64,000 nucleotides of DNA from a virus: IMG/VR virus record IMGVR_UViG_3300032257_000009, positions 7,728-71,727 of that record. One strand, 5' to 3'. Below are positions 1 through 13,753 of the stretch, piece after piece (position 1 is the first letter of the stretch; the number at the start of each line of letters is the position of its first letter). The notes under the pieces were generated by a model. That model was not told the origin of the DNA and did not search any database. It was given only the letters and a program-made list of their open reading frames with translations. A program made the position numbers and the translations under genes.

Positions 1-113
1 AATATGATGTAGGAAGTCCCTGATCATATTTGCAGAATAGGCGGTTGTTTTTGACTTTATCTAATGGGTAGGTCTTTAGTCAAACTTGTTGCATTATATA
101 GCGACAGCCGCCA

Positions 114-188
114 GCCACCTATAGCTCAGACTGGGAAGAGCGTTGATTTTTGAATCAGAGGTCGTCAGTTCAAATCTGGCAGGTGGCT
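114..188 (+). tRNA. Atypical tRNA (possibly Gln-TTG) or tRNA-like RNA
   Basis: Acceptor GCCACCT/AGGTGGC, D arm GCTC..GAGC, T arm GTCAG-TTCAAAT-CTGGC, variable loop AGGTC. There is an extra nucleotide before the D stem, a 16-nt anticodon arm and no encoded CCA. Confidence 0.75.
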
Positions 189-203
189 TTTAGGAGAATG
201 GTA

Positions 204-965
204 ATGAGTAATTCAAATTTTTGGGAAAAGCCTGACTTACTAGTTCTTTCTGGTTCAAGGCTATACGGCTGCAATGATGAAAATTCAGATCACGATCTGA
301 AAGGTTTTGTTGTTGCCCCTGCTCCATATCTATTGGGTAGAGAAAAGTTTGAACAGTTTGAGGAAGAGGATGTAGACACTATCGTTTGGGGATTGCAAAA
401 GTTTTTGAATCTCATGACAAAAGGCTCTCCCAATGCTTTTGAAATACTTTTTGCGCCAGACGAATTTATTCAAGAAATAACTCCCGCAGGCAGACTTGTT
501 GTTGACAATAGGCAGTTGTTTATGGGCATCAATCAGCTATCTCCTGTAATAGGTTATTCTCGATATGAATGGCAAAAAGCTCTTCTCCTACAAAAGGATA
601 AGAAGTCAAGTACCACTGTTGGTCTAAGGAAGCAAGCTGCATTTCAGAAGTATGGGTATTGTCCTAAGAATGCTTACCATGCGATAAGAATACTTCATCA
701 AGGAATCGAGCTTGCTAAACATCAGCATATAACCTTTCCTCGACCAGAGGTTGAAACTCTTATAATGATTCGTAATGGAGAGATCCCTTTTGCTGAATTG
801 GAGGTTATGTTTGAATCTCTTCATGCAGAATTCACTCTGCTAACCAATACTTCTACATTGCCAGAGATGCCATCTCTCGAAAGAATAAATCAATTGTATT
901 ACGATATAATAAACGAACCTGTTTCTAACTTTTTGGAGAATACCTGTGCAAATACTATTTCTTGA
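204..965 (+). CDS. RlaP/YcgL-like DNA polymerase beta-family nucleotidyltransferase (RNA-repair associated)
   Basis: Motifs GSRLYG...SDHDLKG, KGSPNAFEILF and KNAYHAIR. Start moved to the ATG at 204 after SD AGGAG. Confidence 0.8.
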   Translation: MSNSNFWEKPDLLVLSGSRLYGCNDENSDHDLKGFVVAPAPYLLGREKFEQFEEEDVDTIVWGLQKFLNLMTKGSPNAFEILFAPDEFIQEITPAGRLVVDNRQLFMGINQLSPVIGYSRYEWQKALLLQKDKKSSTTVGLRKQAAFQKYGYCPKNAYHAIRILHQGIELAKHQHITFPRPEVETLIMIRNGEIPFAELEVMFESLHAEFTLLTNTSTLPEMPSLERINQLYYDIINEPVSNFLENTCANTIS

Positions 966-1383
966 TGATAATCCTGAGCGACACAAGAAGTTCAGAACCT
1001 TGTCTATTGGATGTTCTGTCGATTTCGTATGGAATGCCGCAGAAGCCATAGAAAAGCTATCAGATAAAGAAAATGAGTATGATCTGATTATGTTAGACCA
1101 TGACTTAGATGTCGAAAAACAAGATATGCTCTTAGAAGACGAAGAGGATGGCAGATATGTTGCTAGGCACTTAGCGACTCTCGTTGATTTTAGGAAGAAT
1201 TCGCATGTCGTAATCCATTCATTAAACTATAATGGTGGACTAGATATGCAAGACATACTTACAAAAGCTGGATTCGAAAATGTTACTCATCTGCCTTTTG
1301 GCTGGAGAATGTTTAGAAAAACGGACAATGGCTGCGAGTTTGTTCCGGATGATAAAAAATGGGGATCGGATGTAAGTCTATGA
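946..1383 (+). CDS. Cyclic-phosphate-processing receiver-like domain protein
   Basis: ILFLDD...LDHDL...VIHS-N pattern typical of phage stand-alone receiver-like proteins. Confidence 0.75.
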   Translation: MQILFLDDNPERHKKFRTLSIGCSVDFVWNAAEAIEKLSDKENEYDLIMLDHDLDVEKQDMLLEDEEDGRYVARHLATLVDFRKNSHVVIHSLNYNGGLDMQDILTKAGFENVTHLPFGWRMFRKTDNGCEFVPDDKKWGSDVSL

Positions 1384-2270
1384 AAATCAAGAGTCTTACT
1401 CTCAAGAATTTCTGTGGATACGAAGATGCTCATTTTGACTTTCTTCGTAAAGACGGAACACCTAAACCTGTTTGTGCCTTCTATGGACCAAATGGTTGTG
1501 GGAAATCTACGGCTCTTGAAGCTATAGAGATGCTTGGGAATATTCGGAGATACATGGACAGAGAGAATGATCTTCTTTTTAGAAAATTAGAATATCATTC
1601 AGATTATGACCCATCTCTTCCTCACTACCAGTCTTCTGAAAAGAAGATGACTATGAGCGCCTGCTTCGTTGATGAGGATGGGAGAGAATATACCAATACA
1701 ATGACATCGGAAGGGGCTGAAGAGGGTAGCGAATTCGATGGTATTTTATCTGCCGAGTTGACGGATTCTTACGTAACCTGTTTTATTGATGCTGATAATC
1801 AAATCAATGTTCAGAAATTCCAATTACCAGATGTGGCTAAAAAAGATTTCTTAGATATTGCGACAGTTGTATACGGTTATACTCCTACGGTTGATAAATC
1901 TATATTCACTATAGAAGATGATGAAGAGATACTTTTTTGGCAGGATCTTATAATAGAAAAAGGCAAGACAAAAGTACATTACAAAAGAATGTCTGCTGGA
2001 GAGAAAAAGATAGCGACTCTTCTTAGGAGTATATGCAATCCCTATACAACGAGAGATAGCGAAGTTCTTCTTGTTGACAATATTGAAATGCATGTCTACT
2101 TTGAAAGGCATGGGAAAATGATGGATAAGATTCTAGAAATCTGTCCTGGGAAACAATTTATTGTAACCTCACATTCAGGAGATATGCTAAAACATATCGG
2201 TGAAAACTACGGCGAAGATTGTCTCTTCAATGTTCCGGAAATAAAAAACGAGCCAATGAATGATGTCTAA
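1380..2270 (+). CDS. ABC-type ATPase (AAA_21/OLD/SbcC-like head, no coiled coil)
   Basis: Walker A GPNGCGKST, signature MSAGEKK, Walker B LLVDNIE, H-loop VTSHS. ATGA overlap with the previous gene. Confidence 0.8.
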   Translation: MKIKSLTLKNFCGYEDAHFDFLRKDGTPKPVCAFYGPNGCGKSTALEAIEMLGNIRRYMDRENDLLFRKLEYHSDYDPSLPHYQSSEKKMTMSACFVDEDGREYTNTMTSEGAEEGSEFDGILSAELTDSYVTCFIDADNQINVQKFQLPDVAKKDFLDIATVVYGYTPTVDKSIFTIEDDEEILFWQDLIIEKGKTKVHYKRMSAGEKKIATLLRSICNPYTTRDSEVLLVDNIEMHVYFERHGKMMDKILEICPGKQFIVTSHSGDMLKHIGENYGEDCLFNVPEIKNEPMNDV

Positions 2271-3189: not shown

Positions 3190-3633
3190 ATGTCGAGAGA
3201 CTTGATTACTCAATTTGATATAGATAAGCACAGAGAATCTTCTTGGATATCTTGCATCAATGCAGTTATGTCTGAGGGAAGACCTCAATTTATAAATATC
3301 ATAGAGCATAAGTACACGGACACTTTTTTCGAGATTCCTCCGACCTGTAAGTTTATCTGTCACACGAGCAAAGATGGTGGACTCGTAAATTTTATGCGAG
3401 AAGGAGAGGCTTCGGCAGACATTGTTGAATATCTTTATACTCTCAACTTGCAACAGCAAACTTACGGCAATTCAAGTGCAGATATTGTTATCTCTAGAAC
3501 CGTTCATACTTTCTTCGAATTATATGGTTATATGGATATAGACTTGCATATAGTGAGGAGACCCTTGAAGTCTCAGGGAGAATTACAAATCTCCATTGCT
3601 GTATTCAATAGAGATAAAATAATAAGACTCTAA
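3190..3633 (+). CDS. Hypothetical protein
   Basis: 147-aa ORF tightly packed in operon. Confidence 0.6.
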   Translation: MSRDLITQFDIDKHRESSWISCINAVMSEGRPQFINIIEHKYTDTFFEIPPTCKFICHTSKDGGLVNFMREGEASADIVEYLYTLNLQQQTYGNSSADIVISRTVHTFFELYGYMDIDLHIVRRPLKSQGELQISIAVFNRDKIIRL

Positions 3634-3642
3634 GGAGTAAAT

Positions 3643-4353
3643 ATGAATTTATTTACAATTGACGAACTCTATATCTTCAACAAATTTCTATCTATAATAA
3701 ATAAGAGAACGGAATCTGCTAATCCAATTACTCTTGATGATGTTTCTCGTTATGTATACCAAGAATACCAAAAAGAAACATGTACTGGGTACGAAAGAAA
3801 ATATCATAACTTCAGTCATGTAATTGATTGCATAAACACTTTAGAGTTTGTATCTACGATTTATTCTTTATCTGAAATGGAATATGATTTACTATTCGTT
3901 GCTATTATATATCACGATGCTGTTTATAAAACTGGAGAACTTCTCGCTCCAGGCGGTAACGAGATGTTTAGTGCGATATTTGCCGCTAAAGAGCTAAAGA
4001 CTCTAAGAATGTCTAAGGATTTTATAGATGAAGTATCTAGACTAATACTTGCAACAATGCATTCTGATCCTGTTTTTGACTCAACCTTTTTAGAATTAGT
4101 TATAAGAGATATAGATTTAGCAGGTCTTGCTGCTCCCTGGGAACAGTTCTCCAAGGTATCAGATAATATTCGTCACGAATATGGCTGCTATGATGATGCT
4201 TCTTATGCAGAGGGTAGAATAGCCTTCTTAGATAACTTTCTAAGTAGAGATTCTATCTATAATTGTCATAAGCTAAGAGATCTATGGGAAAATACGGCTT
4301 TAGACAACCTGAAGCAGCATTTACAAGAGCTACAAGTAACTTCAGCTAAGTAA
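3643..4353 (+). CDS. HD-superfamily phosphohydrolase
   Basis: RKYHNFSH, IIYHD, NEMFSA, ILATMH, DIDL and IRHEY motifs; SD AAGGAG. Confidence 0.8.
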   Translation: MNLFTIDELYIFNKFLSIINKRTESANPITLDDVSRYVYQEYQKETCTGYERKYHNFSHVIDCINTLEFVSTIYSLSEMEYDLLFVAIIYHDAVYKTGELLAPGGNEMFSAIFAAKELKTLRMSKDFIDEVSRLILATMHSDPVFDSTFLELVIRDIDLAGLAAPWEQFSKVSDNIRHEYGCYDDASYAEGRIAFLDNFLSRDSIYNCHKLRDLWENTALDNLKQHLQELQVTSAK

Positions 4354-4420: not shown

Positions 4421-4687
4421 GAATTCTCGTGTCATTTTTCAAAGTTTTCTGCTTTTTCTAGTAGGTCAGAGACTTGTACCACTACATATTGTATATTATA
4501 TCTTGTTTTTTTCGAGAATTTGGCAAGTTTTAATAAGTAAGGTTATTACTAGTATAAGTAATAATAAGAATTGTCAAATCCTCGGCTTTTTATACTAATA
4601 AATACCTAATATAGCAGTATGAGTGAATCTCTGTCGAGAATTTGACAACAAAAAACGAGAATCTGACATAAATTGGCCTTATTCTCG
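4421..4687. repeat. Dispersed direct and inverted repeats, consensus CGAGAATTTGRCAA (iteron/operator-like)
   Basis: Copies at 4513-4526(+), 4571-4584(-), 4635-4648(+) and 4656-4669(+); partial copies at 4421-4430(-) and 4673-4687(-); very AT-rich intergenic DNA. Confidence 0.65.
4479..4494. promoter_or_regulatory. NrdR-box-like site
   Basis: CCACTACATATTGTAT resembles the NrdR consensus aCaCwAtATaTwGtGt; single copy. Confidence 0.35.
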
Positions 4688-4765: not shown

Positions 4766-5044
4766 TTACGACAATAGGTCGTCATAGTCTACTGGGTCTG
4801 GTTCTGTAGGGACTTCATCTGTTTCCATAAAAGACAGAGTTTCGGATCTTATCTTTGCGAATCTGCGAATTGCATCCCATGTACGGTGCTTGCCGTTGAA
4901 ATCAGACCAGTCGCCTGTAGGTAAAGTCTTGGATTGGAGTATGTACACTAGATTATCTATTTCTTCATTCATATTACTTTGTTCTATATTTGTTATGCGA
5001 ATGCCTTTGAGATTATGAGTGAAAGTCTTATCGTAAAGTTGCAT
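4766..5044 (-). CDS. Hypothetical protein
   Basis: 92-aa ORF with natural composition and acidic tail. Confidence 0.5.
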   Translation of the reverse strand: MQLYDKTFTHNLKGIRITNIEQSNMNEEIDNLVYILQSKTLPTGDWSDFNGKHRTWDAIRRFAKIRSETLSFMETDEVPTEPDPVDYDDLLS

Positions 5045-5129
5045 TCCTGTCGAAAGCGATCATAGACATAGATTAATTAGGCCATCGCAAGCTTGATTAA
5101 TTGCGCGAATGAACGAGGAATTAAAATTA

Positions 5130-5580
5130 TAGTGTGTCCCCGAACTTCACTGGACCGTATCGTTGCTACGATAAGCAACCACTCTTGCCCCACAAAGGGC
5201 GGTGTAGTATACAATGTGCGAATGAATATACTATTTTCCTGCTTATGTAAAAATAAGATAGTTGTTGTCTCGGCTTCTGGTCGCTCTTCATTGAGACAAT
5301 AGACGAAAAGAAACGGTGACTGGCTGAAAGCCGGGTTAACAAACCGACCTAAAGAAATCAACCCCGGCAACGTCGTATCCTCACGGCGAGCAGTAGTTGT
5401 TTGTTCTTTTTTAAGGAATGAATTTCTACTGAAGAGCGGCTATTTAACTACTGTGTAGCTATTATCTTCTGCTAACAAAATAAAAATCTTAATCTAAAAG
5501 ACTTTATATAAACCGACTCTAACAGCGTTAGAGGCGGTGCGAGTGAACGAAGTGAAGGAGCTGGCCCTCAGGCACTCTAC
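5130..5580 (+). ncRNA. Putative large structured ncRNA with loop-loop pseudoknot
   Basis: Many stems, with G-U pairs favouring the + strand; 13-bp pairing of 5278-5290 with 5430-5442; no convincing ORF. Boundaries approximate. Confidence 0.55.
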
Positions 5581-5657
5581 TTCTAAAACAAGGTTCATAT
5601 GACTCTAGCTTAGAATACTACTTCTGGACGATAAGATCTTTAAAGAGGAACAATACA

Positions 5658-5873
5658 ATGAGTGATAAGAACAAAAATGAATTTGATAAACAGTTTGGGA
5701 TAGATCCGCAGTCACATATTCTAGGACAACATAGAAATATACCTGATACTATAGATTGGTCTAAACTAATTGAGAGAGGTTCTCAGGAGCAAGATCCAAA
5801 CAAAAAACCTACAACAATGCTGGGATTCGTTAATGAACAGCACTCAAATACAGACCAAAAACCAAATAACTGA
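5658..5873 (+). CDS. Hypothetical protein
   Basis: 71-aa ORF with SD GAGG. Confidence 0.55.
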   Translation: MSDKNKNEFDKQFGIDPQSHILGQHRNIPDTIDWSKLIERGSQEQDPNKKPTTMLGFVNEQHSNTDQKPNN

Positions 5874-5900: not shown

Positions 5901-7856
<1,956 letters not shown>

Positions 7857-7869
7857 GAGACCTATTGTT

Positions 7870-8088
7870 ATGTACGATGTAGGCAGTATCATAGAGATAA
7901 AAAATACGCTCAAAGAGATAGGAGCCTATGATGCTGACTACTTTGAGGAATGGTATTCTGCTCCCATTCCAGACTTTGAATATAAATCTCCTAAAGATAT
8001 GTTTGACTCAGGTGATTTGACTCAATTGCAAAATGTAATGAAGTGGTTAGATACAGGAATGCATAGCAGAAAAAATGACAGTGAATGA
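7870..8088 (+). CDS. Xre/MbcA/ParS antitoxin C-terminal-like small protein
   Basis: EWYSAPIPDFEYKSPKDMFDSGDLTQL resembles the W..P...L.G.TP..LL..G pattern; SD AGGAG. Confidence 0.5.
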   Translation: MYDVGSIIEIKNTLKEIGAYDADYFEEWYSAPIPDFEYKSPKDMFDSGDLTQLQNVMKWLDTGMHSRKNDSE

Positions 8089-11188: not shown

Positions 11189-11965
11189 ATGCAACAATAT
11201 TTAGACTTACTTTCTTTGCTCTTGGAAAATGGAGAGCAAAAGGGTGATAGAACAGGAACAGGCACTATGTCTGTTTTTGGCCACCAGATGAGATTTGACT
11301 TACAGAAGGGTTTTCCTCTGTTGACGACAAAAAAACTTCACACAAGGTCTATATTGCATGAATTATTATGGTTTATTCAAGGTGATACAAATATAAAGTA
11401 CCTCCAAGACAATGGCGTAAAAATATGGGATGCTTGGGCTGATGAGAATGGAGACCTGGGCCCGGTTTACGGCAAACAATGGAGAGATTTCAACGGGGTA
11501 GATCAAATAGCCAATGTTTTGCATTCAATAAAGACGAATCCTGATTCTCGACGACATATTATTACAGCATGGAACCCAGTGGATGTCCCAAATATGGCGC
11601 TACCTCCATGTCATTGCTTATTTCAATTTTATGTAGTTAATGGAAAATTGTCTTGCCAGCTATATCAGAGAAGCTGCGATGTTTTTCTTGGAGTTCCGTT
11701 TAATATCGCTTCATATTCTTATCTAACCCATATGATTGCTTCTGTTTGCGATTTGGAAGTTGGAGACTTTATTTGGACTGGCGGAGATGTTCATTTATAT
11801 AACAACCATATAGATCAAGCTAAAGAACAATTAGCTAGAGAACCAAAAGAACTTCCAAAGCTTATTCTTAATAAGAGAGAATCTATTGAAGAATTTGAAT
11901 ATGAAGATTTTGAGATAACAGGATACGATCCAGACCCATCAATAAAGGCTCCGATTGCTGTATGA
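11189..11965 (+). CDS. thyA: Thymidylate synthase
   Basis: [41 protein letters not shown]-terminal APIAV. Confidence 0.98.
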
Positions 11966-12492
11966 TTTCTGATATCAAAATAAATATAATAGTTGCGGTC
12001 TCTAAAAATGGAGTTATTGGATTAGACAATAAACTTCCTTGGAGGCAATCTGAGGATCTAAAAAGATTCAAAAAACTAACTATGGGTGGCTCTGTTATTA
12101 TGGGAAGAAAGACCTATGAATCATTGCCTTCAAATCTAAAAGGAAGAAGACAAGTAATCCTTACTAGGGATATAGATTATTCTGTAGATGAAGATTCTAT
12201 AAAGGCTTTTTCTATTGGAGAGGCTCTTCATTGTGCAGTAGAGGGAAGGGATGATCGGGAAGTATGGGTCATTGGCGGTAGCGAAATATATAAAAACTTT
12301 TTACTAATAGCGGACAATATCTATTTAACAGAGATAGATTCGGATGTTGTTGGAGATGCTCACTTTCATTTACCAGAAGATTGGCAAATGATAGAGGAAC
12401 AAGCGTGTAAAGCGGATAATAGTAATCAGTATGATTATACTTTCCGACTTTATACAAGAATTGAACAAAGCGAACATGTTTATATTAGCTGA
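11962..12492 (+). CDS. folA: Dihydrofolate reductase
   Basis: [32 protein letters not shown]. Confidence 0.96.
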
Positions 12493-13003
12493 CATAGAAG
12501 CGACGTGCTGGGAACGGCACAAAAAAGTAGATGATAATGAAATAATAGAGATCGCCTTCCTCGTTTGTAATGTGAAAGGCGATGTTTTGTGTCGCTACCA
12601 ATCATTCGCAAAACCTGTTACAAATACAAAGCTTTCAAGATTTTGCAAAAAGCTTACGGGAATAAAACAAGAAGATCTTGTTGACGCAAGACCTTTGGGT
12701 GATGTTATATTAGAAATAACAGATATGATAGAAGACAGATTTGGTATTCCATCGCATTTTATATCATGGGCTTCATGGGGTAACTGGGACCCGATATGTT
12801 TAGGAAATGATTGCGAAAGACATAATGTAGACGTTCCATTTGGCAATCATATCAATCTGCAAAAATTATATGAAGACCTAAGAGGCGTAAATGTCGGACT
12901 AAAAGAAGCTTGCGAACTAGAAGGTTATAAATGGATAGGCGAGAGACATAGAGCCTTAAGCGATACAGAGAATTCTTTGAACATAGCAAAAATATTACTG
13001 TAG
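12476..13003 (+). CDS. DEDDh 3'-5' exonuclease (ERI-1/KapD-like)
   Basis: [29 protein letters not shown]. Confidence 0.88.
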   Translation: MFILADIEATCWERHKKVDDNEIIEIAFLVCNVKGDVLCRYQSFAKPVTNTKLSRFCKKLTGIKQEDLVDARPLGDVILEITDMIEDRFGIPSHFISWASWGNWDPICLGNDCERHNVDVPFGNHINLQKLYEDLRGVNVGLKEACELEGYKWIGERHRALSDTENSLNIAKILL

Positions 13004-13753
13004 TCTTTGCAGGGTTGATACATGGTTCTTGGCTCTTCTTCCAGTTTGACCATACCATTTACTATCTACAAGTTCTGCGGCGGCAGTTGCATAATCTTGA
13101 TTTTGGATAGCTGCTCTGAATTTAGGGAAACCATATATTCCTCTTGTTCCTAAATTATAAGTGAGATCAACTAATATTTGTTTTACTTCATCTGGTTGAT
13201 TGTTGAAACTAGGAAACACAGACATAGCAGCTTTTTCTGCGTTAGAGGCATCTATTGCTAAAAGCGTATCTATCTGTTGATCATTTAGAGATTGCTGGCC
13301 GCTATATATTGATTGGAAATCAAGACCAATTCCATTTATAATTTCTTGGGCATCGCTTCTTTCTAGATTAAAGCCAACGCCGATTGTTTTATGGCCTGTT
13401 GTATCTGTATAGACAGTGTTTCTTCTGCCTTCCCAATGTTCTATGAATGAAGAATAAGGATTAGATCTTGTTTGAGGCTTAGTTTGTTCGATAGGTTGTT
13501 GGTTGTATGTAGGCGAATATTGATTGACAAGCTCTTCGGGAGCATCCCTTACAATTTCATGAGCTAGAGATTCTGAGGTTCCTATATATTCTTTAGCCTC
13601 TTGTTCTGTTCTACCAGTTTGAGCAGCCCACAAGGATATAGCGAGAGCAATAACTCCCATTCCTCCACCAATTAGGGCGTTATTCTTTGCGCCTTGCCAG
13701 TCCATAGCTTCTTTTTCTAATTGTTGTATTTTTATATTATTATACCAAGTCAT
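12995..13753 (-). CDS. T4-type (GH24) lysozyme with WY..KEA leader and hydrophobic helix
   Basis: WEG....YTDTTGHKTIGVG catalytic E-D-T pattern, YNLG, SKWYGQTGRRA. Confidence 0.88.
   Translation of the reverse strand: MTWYNNIKIQQLEKEAMDWQGAKNNALIGGGMGVIALAISLWAAQTGRTEQEAKEYIGTSESLAHEIVRDAPEELVNQYSPTYNQQPIEQTKPQTRSNPYSSFIEHWEGRRNTVYTDTTGHKTIGVGFNLERSDAQEIINGIGLDFQSIYSGQQSLNDQQIDTLLAIDASNAEKAAMSVFPSFNNQPDEVKQILVDLTYNLGTRGIYGFPKFRAAIQNQDYATAAAELVDSKWYGQTGRRAKNHVSTLQRLQ

Follow-up and report, generated by a model that had tools for sequence, protein, structure and literature searches.

To our knowledge, few natural RNAs are both large and folded in a complex, conserved way, and the study of every one so far, from RNase P and the self-splicing introns to, more recently, the ornate RNAs, has revealed new RNA biology. 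Two such RNAs, GOLLD and ROOL, are reported from phages. Together with OLE, they count among the large "ornate" RNAs of bacteria and phages, and according to the abstract of PMC12286853 all three form multimers. GOLLD, ROOL and OLE resemble the megaphage RNA described here in spanning several hundred bases, in having multiple hairpins and a pseudoknot, and in having no known function. The megaphage RNA differs in that no credible Rfam match to it was found with E-values up to 10. The family is uncatalogued, although large RNAs with no known function have been met in phages before.

Work has also been done on the intergenic regions of IMG/VR, which were mined for covarying RNAs in PMC10690425. 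The candidates there are 29–151 bases in length, and the set could hold a fragment of the megaphage RNA. No description of the RNA was found in searches of the literature on structured RNAs and RNA repair in huge and jumbo phages. PMC7824862, in the part of its text that was available, discusses RlaP and cREC as RNA-repair components of jumbo phages and contains none of the terms "ncRNA", "non-coding RNA", "structured RNA" or "tmRNA".

The locus lies near one end of the window, by which is meant the whole 64,000-nucleotide stretch analyzed, corresponding to bases 7728–71727 of an IMG/VR virus record that is 71.7 kb long and has an estimated completeness of 14%. Since the complete relatives of this phage are 488–499 kb in length with direct terminal repeats, the window can be taken as a fragment of a megaphage genome of about 500 kb. 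Judged by conservation, the RNA extends over 5126–5590 on the plus strand, with a 5′ end possibly near 5105; these are limits of conservation and not mapped ends. It sits within a gene-free gap of 613 bases (5045–5657), where G+C is 0.45 at 5101–5400 versus 0.28–0.38 over most of the flanks. The window's own record carries the RNA once, as do complete genomes of 488 and 499 kb and a 98%-complete genome of 494 kb. The sequence was found in three microbial-mat DNA runs, one of which is probably its source, and contigs of four DNA sequencing runs contained no differing letters within 5126–5590. The comparisons below confirm this stretch as what appears to be a real, conserved, pseudoknotted RNA gene of an uncatalogued family. 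The original prediction, made from the letters of the window, had proposed a large structured phage RNA of no recognized family, and the Rfam miss, the covariation of the pseudoknot PK1 and the absence of a conserved reading frame all support it.

Homologues were sought through the NAD-dependent DNA ligase gene that lies downstream. An alignment of the six closest ligases fetched 19 viral loci, a viral-contig scan with the ligase as a single protein having given no match. With the gap as query, nhmmer matched four of these 19 loci, on the plus strand and upstream of the ligase, with E-values from 1e-13 to 4e-19, while blastn of 5000–5700 against phage GenBank records matched nothing. In L003 and L005 the match covered query positions 82–547 of 5045–5657, or 5126–5591 in the window, which is almost exactly the span of 5130–5580 that had been predicted. 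A pattern derived from the conserved central junction recovered the same four contigs from the IMG/VR viral contigs; one extra match of the DNA pattern, L044, was discarded as a chance hit in GC-rich coding DNA. In metagenomes the pattern caught 18 stretches, eight of which are true members: four are contigs already in the viral records and four are new, being close relatives of L003. The other ten scored no more than 20.4 bits on the covariance model R1 and are not members. A scan of prokaryote genomes with the junction pattern gave six stretches, the best at 18.9 bits, and no member.

R1 models the best-aligned part of the RNA (H4, H5, the junction and H6) and was built from five sequences including the window, so that the window's own match (5234–5370, 135.9 bits) is by construction. 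A diverged copy was detected with R1 in the 494-kb genome of L013 (44 bits, E 6e-10), far from that genome's ligase. A 16-bit R1 match upstream of the ligase in L009, L010 and L013, once taken as a reduced copy, was accordingly dropped, the real copy in that phage being the 44-bit one elsewhere in the genome. Synteny in the 494-kb genome led to an ABC-type ATPase about 3 kb upstream of the RNA, whose alignment fetched 20 loci, and the RNA was present at 33–60 bits in 10 of the 16 previously unknown ATPase loci among them.

In total, 16 sequences (15 distinct alignment rows) were collected; they can be grouped into 11 lineages, spread over two clades of uncultured megaphages. R1 scores 130–146 bits on the eight clade-1 sequences, 33–60 bits on the eight of clade 2, and about 20 bits or below on everything outside the two clades. 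With E-values up to 1, R1 had no match in G001–G003, G005 or G010 and reached only 11 bits in G004 (E 0.72). A second model, R2, built from all members, found nothing in 17 further or repeated records, four of them at least 90% complete. By these searches, the family has so far been found only in two related clades of uncultured megaphages; it is a narrow one. Its core features, namely H5 with PK1, a junction with CGGU and GACUG, and H6 with CCGAC in its loop, are all present in the window.

Comparison with known families gave a consistent answer. Against the 4227 models of Rfam 15, which include GOLLD, ROOL, OLE, raiA, RNase P, tmRNA, group I and II introns and riboswitches, the only gathering-level match in the window was a tRNA at 115–187. 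With E-values up to 10, the region 4900–5800 gave three matches, each to a snoRNA or thermometer model, whose 15–18 bits fall well short of the gathering scores, and positions 3200–3950 of L066 gave chance-level matches only. Eight clade-2 loci had 0 matches at gathering level, and ARAGORN called no tRNA or tmRNA within the RNA, either in the window or at 10 homologous loci. The earlier reading had recognized no RNase P, tmRNA or intron core in this region and had proposed a cmscan against Rfam; with no gathering-level match and nothing from ARAGORN, both steps led to the same result. The model of the TPP riboswitch (RF00059), tried as a candidate, matched neither the window nor its homologues. 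The junction pattern did catch a genuine TPP riboswitch, scoring 71.9 bits, at 388–494 of L050, a Peptococcia MAG; the junction letters that it shares form a hairpin that is impossible in the megaphage RNA, and the resemblance is one of chance.

In the proposed fold, four 5′ hairpins (H1–H4) would be followed by H5, whose loop would pair with the strand after H8 to form PK1. PK1 would close a ring around a single-stranded conserved junction, H6, and the variable hairpins H7 and H8, and the loop of H6 would pair back to the junction (PK2). The elements and their neighbors are collected in Table 1.

Table 1. Elements of the proposed RNA fold and flanking reading frames (window coordinates, except where a locus is named).
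Feature	Position	Strand	Remarks
92-aa ORF, upstream neighbor	4766-5044	-	divergent from RNA; no known family
Short overlapping ORF	5077-5370	-	no relatives in homologous loci
Short overlapping ORF	5093-5302	+	no relatives in homologous loci
H1 hairpin, 6 bp	5162-5179	+	other-sequence hairpins at same place in L002, L003 (partly by reading)
H2 hairpin	5187-5190/5197-5200; element 5187-5204	+	conserved GGUR follows
H3 hairpin, 8 bp	5205-5233	+	equivalents in L002, L003, L006 with unrelated stem sequences
H4 hairpin	5242-5246/5253-5257	+	conserved AUAG follows
H5 hairpin	5264-5272/5292-5300	+	presents PK1 loop
PK1, 5′ strand	5279-5290	+	in H5 loop
Conserved junction J	5301-5329	+	CGGU, GACUG, UGARAG; invariant columns
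PK2	5314-5317 (CGGU)/5343-5346 (H6 loop)	+	98.4% of cells paired (A8)
H6 hairpin	5330-5335/5363-5368	+	conserved loop with CCGAC and A-rich run
H7 hairpin	5371-5376/5383-5388	+	all 10 lineages folded have a first hairpin here, with unrelated stem sequences
H8 hairpin	outer 5391-5396/5426-5431; inner 5399-5409/5413-5423	+	10 of 10 lineages folded
PK1, 3′ strand	5430-5441	+	pairs with 5279-5290
H9 hairpin	5514-5537	+	less conserved 3′ part
71-aa ORF, downstream neighbor	5658-5873	+	no Pfam family; homologues 3′ of RNA in 7 of 11 lineages
Homologues of the 71-aa ORF	L003 5686-5922; L006 4177-4458; L066 3867-4055; L059 4883-5089; L058 12589-12780; L064 12706-12900		
NAD-dependent DNA ligase	5946-7856		after 71-aa ORF

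Covariation was counted on three alignments: A5, a MAFFT alignment of the eight sequences of the window's clade; A8, of all 16 sequences; and A7, which was fitted to the covariance model and so leans towards structure by construction. H5 corresponds to a stem that had been predicted at 5262–5271/5293–5302, and in its slightly shifted, conserved form its pairs changed on both sides in 8 of 9 cases on A5, 8 of 9 on A7 and 7 of 7 on A8. Its loop of 19 bases pairs with the strand directly after H8 over 8–12 bp. On A5 the 12 pairs of PK1 comprise five that are invariant, two with one-sided and five with two-sided changes, and 99.0% of the cells are paired. On A8 two-sided changes occur in 6 of the 12 pairs with 87.6% of the cells paired, a count in which L062 (one column out of register), L066, L058 and L059 (a bulged A) and L064 (two extra bases) are scored as unpaired. 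The outer four pairs are kept in the window's clade only, and the helix is 8–9 bp long elsewhere.

The original prediction had described this interaction as a 13-bp kissing loop or pseudoknot. In the window, the 13-base loop segment 5278–5290 is indeed complementary to 5430–5442, including two G-U pairs, and the loop-to-strand helix whose covariation was to be sought does covary as 5279–5290/5430–5441; the kissing loop falls away, the 3′ strand not lying in a conserved hairpin loop. CUACUG occurs twice in the window (5426–5431 and 5448–5453); in the homologues only the counterpart of 5426–5431 is kept, and it pairs with that of 5391–5396 to close H8. PK1 would therefore follow H8 directly and share two bases with it. 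A second stem, drawn at 5390–5399/5445–5454 and enclosing the 3′ strand, is replaced in the homologues by pairing of the equivalents of 5391–5396 with 5426–5431 (by reading). Because a hairpin loop here joins the strand directly after another hairpin, PK1 is, from the comparison, a loop-to-strand pseudoknot and not a kissing loop. The covariation by itself would fit intramolecular and intermolecular pairing equally well. By reading, the four bases just before H8 could alternatively pair with the first four of the PK1 3′ strand in five of the 11 lineages (the L003 group, L066, L058, L059 and L062); the window, L002, L006 and L056 lack this competing pairing.

Taken together, H5, PK1 and H6 on A5 have 98.1% of their cells paired and 16 of 27 pairs changed on both sides, values reached by 0 of 500 shuffles, and sliding the 3′ partners by 1–3 columns leaves 35–49% of the cells paired. 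For H5 and H6 on A7 the figures are 91.7% and 15 of 16. On A8, where H6 is out of register and was omitted from the count, 90.6% of the cells are paired and 14 of 23 pairs show two-sided changes; 0 of 500 shuffles match the paired cells or the covariation score, and 28 of 500 match the number of two-sided changes. Of the five whole-structure measures, one, further pair types, did not beat shuffling on A7 (291 of 500); on A8 that measure (53 of 500) and the number of two-sided changes were weak. Since the 16 sequences represent 11 lineages, with five sequences from one close group, the cell counts overstate the number of independent events. The folding-energy signal is weak: the plus strand folds at −123.6 kcal/mol with z = −2.33, about two standard deviations below shuffles, and the minus strand is similar at z = −2.09. 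As had been proposed from the window, G-U wobbles favor the plus strand; they occupy 17 of 351 cells on A8. The orientation of the RNA relative to neighboring genes is constant in 15 of 16 loci.

The center of the RNA also holds conserved unpaired bases. The 14-base junction stretch that served as search key is identical in all clade-1 sequences. In PK2 the fourth pair is U-A in nine sequences, U-G in five and C-G in one. H6 shows two-sided changes in 3 of 6 pairs on A5 with 100% of the cells paired, and in 7 of 7 on A7 with 97.1%, its strands varying jointly as GCCGGG/CCCGGC, GCUGGG/CCCAGC, GUUGAG/UUCAAC and GCUAAG/CUUAGC. A hairpin written CTGGCT-GAA-AGCCGG in the original prediction is not kept by reading, and its 3′ half belongs to the covarying H6. 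With two pseudoknots and invariant unpaired CGGU, GACUG, UGARAG, CCGAC and an A-rich run amid freely varying helices, the core has the traits expected of an RNA that shapes a precise pocket.

The remaining hairpins (H1–H4 and H7–H9, as well as H6 in A8) were not kept in register by MAFFT and were followed through segment folds and sequence reading, with no pair counts. By reading, the stems of H2 are GCCC/GGGC, GCUC/GAGC, GCGC/GCGC, GCUU/AAGC, UUCUC/GAGAA or AUAUC/GAUAU according to lineage, and nine of the ten 5′ segments folded contain H2 in their minimum-energy structure. H4, with the stems CUUAU/AUAAG, CUCCU/AGGAG, GUCUG/CAGAC and CUCUC/GAGAG, folds in 9–10 of 10. The outer stem of H8 is CAGUAG/CUACUG in the window and CAGCCG/CGGCUG, CAGCCA/UGGCUG or CAGUC/GACUG elsewhere, and three-base-loop hairpins stand at the place of H9 in L002, L003, L006, L066, L059 and L061 (by reading). 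Every pairing listed in the original prediction exists in the window, and those at 5162–5179, 5187–5200, 5205–5233 and 5514–5537 recur as hairpins of different sequence at equivalent places, judged from segment folds and reading. An outer stem (5255–5262/5461–5468) is present in the window and by reading is not kept in homologues.

An all-against-all search of the MAFFT alignment for extra covarying helices was too noisy for 4-bp stems. It offered as candidates the pairing of 5154–5160 with 5311–5317 and a 5′ extension of H8; a further candidate is the pairing of the junction UGAAAG, or of the A-run in the H6 loop, with the U-run of the H8 loop. In clade 2, some 330–400 bases after the core (e.g., L066 ~3800–3830), a conserved non-coding CAAUGAAAARGU follows a C-rich run. 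By reading, the motif occurs in L066, L058, L059, L061 and L064, and the L003 group has something similar; it may be either part of a 3′ domain of the RNA or a signal for the next gene.

Could the region be protein-coding, a degenerate coding region, or a functionless spacer rich in hairpins? Two short ORFs do overlap the RNA, but they have no relatives in the homologous loci, no overlapping ORF has a relative outside near-identical phages, neither has a Pfam match, and the conservation tracks base pairs and not codons, which makes this reading scarcely credible. The original prediction had set conserved coding in these ORFs as a result that would count against an RNA, and none extends beyond near-identical relatives. 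The small proteins flanking the RNA are only 37–46% identical. The one downstream belongs to a family of 60–93 aa, found 3′ of the RNA on the same strand in seven of the 11 lineages and in both clades, with six invariant columns (P, I, W, L, G and Q). No Pfam family matches this protein, the Atlas returned nothing above 0.84, and its structure model is poor (pLDDT 0.34).

Alternatively, the region might be an origin-associated element linked to the repeats at 4513–4669, whether as a structured stretch of DNA or as an RNA with a priming or regulatory role. These repeats lie about 500 bases upstream, and their 14-base motif, with up to two mismatches, has four matches against 1.3 expected, a number that 4 of 100 shuffles reach. 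In L003 one exact copy (4422–4435) precedes the RNA by about 650 bases, and translations read as ligase, thymidylate synthase and dihydrofolate reductase are nearby. Against this, an exact copy is absent from 66 of 71 loci, including clade 2, the compensating changes, together with the G-U pairs, indicate that what folds is a single strand with one polarity, and a primer would have no need of a conserved double-pseudoknot core. The idea, which had been raised in the original prediction, gains nothing from the comparison, the genome position in clade 2 being equivalent and the motif exact only in L003-phage records among the 71 loci. It is very improbable.

A more serious alternative is that the RNA acts in cis as an unusually long 5′ leader, working like a riboswitch or by binding a protein, for the small ORF and, in the window's clade, also for the ligase. 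In 7 of 11 lineages, across both clades, the homologous small ORF comes directly after the RNA and shares its strand, the gap between the two in the window is 68 bases (5590–5658) with no intrinsic terminator found there, and a pairing that could compete with PK1 is read in the L003 group, L066, L058, L059 and L062. However, that pairing is missing from the window, L002, L006 and L056, and the part of the RNA that is least conserved is the stretch adjoining the start of the ORF. Loci that lack the small ORF (L002, L061/L060, L056 and L062) keep the RNA all the same, and in clade-2 genomes the ligase is elsewhere and unlinked to it. A same-strand ORF follows in those 7 of 11 lineages only, and no conserved terminator or anti-terminator was seen (partly by reading).

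What follows the RNA varies with the lineage: a peptide deformylase (identified by reading from its EGCLS and HEIDH motifs), an unrelated ORF of 219 aa, or a gene on the opposite strand. In L060 (~11700–13100) the RNA segment is inverted relative to the close relative L061 and lies between partial copies of a deformylase-like gene. In the 494-kb genome G006, a GC-rich hairpin and a T run can be read on each side of the RNA, the hairpin and T-rich run after it separating it from a next gene on the other strand. This arrangement makes an independent RNA gene more likely than a leader; the leader is, on balance, unlikely, and the independent gene is the probable reading. The RNA is thus best described as a probable stand-alone non-coding RNA gene, with a conserved core of about 330 bases in a conserved stretch of about 465 bases, and as a candidate for a trans-acting, site-forming RNA.

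As to what such a gene might do, the conserved unpaired bases in the double-pseudoknot core could form a site that binds a protein or a small ligand, or that catalyzes a reaction, and the RNA would work in trans and not as the leader of one gene. These half-megabase phages keep a single-copy RNA while the surrounding proteins drift to about 40% identity, and such constraint implies a function that matters to the phage. More speculatively, and with considerable doubt, it might be a large functional phage RNA of a new class, serving as a ribozyme or as the core of an assembly made of RNA alone or of RNA and protein, with a reaction carried out or directed by the pocket during infection and perhaps tied to the RlaP, cREC and AAA_15 genes 3 kb upstream in the window. 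Since the genomes are broadly collinear, little weight can be given to the link with these RNA-repair-type genes, which is positional only. RlaP (PF10127, E 2e-18) and cREC_REC (PF20274, E 2e-11) have relatives in clade-1 loci only, and the AAA_15 ATPase is upstream of the RNA in both clades.

The upstream region of the window (113–2270) begins with an odd tRNA-like gene, followed by RlaP, cREC_REC and an AAA_15/AAA_21 ATPase. ARAGORN places the tRNA-like gene at 113–189 with an unassigned anticodon, and the Rfam tRNA match at 115–187 scores 36.4 bits. The same order of tRNA-like gene, RlaP, cREC and ATPase is seen in L002, where ARAGORN gives the tRNA-like gene a four-base anticodon. On the other side of the RNA, the ligase is followed by an 89-aa ORF (7819–8088) with a weak match to Xre_MbcA_ParS_C (E 4.6e-4; 20.6 bits, below the 24.5-bit cut-off), and homologues of this ORF stand after the ligase in the L003 group as well.
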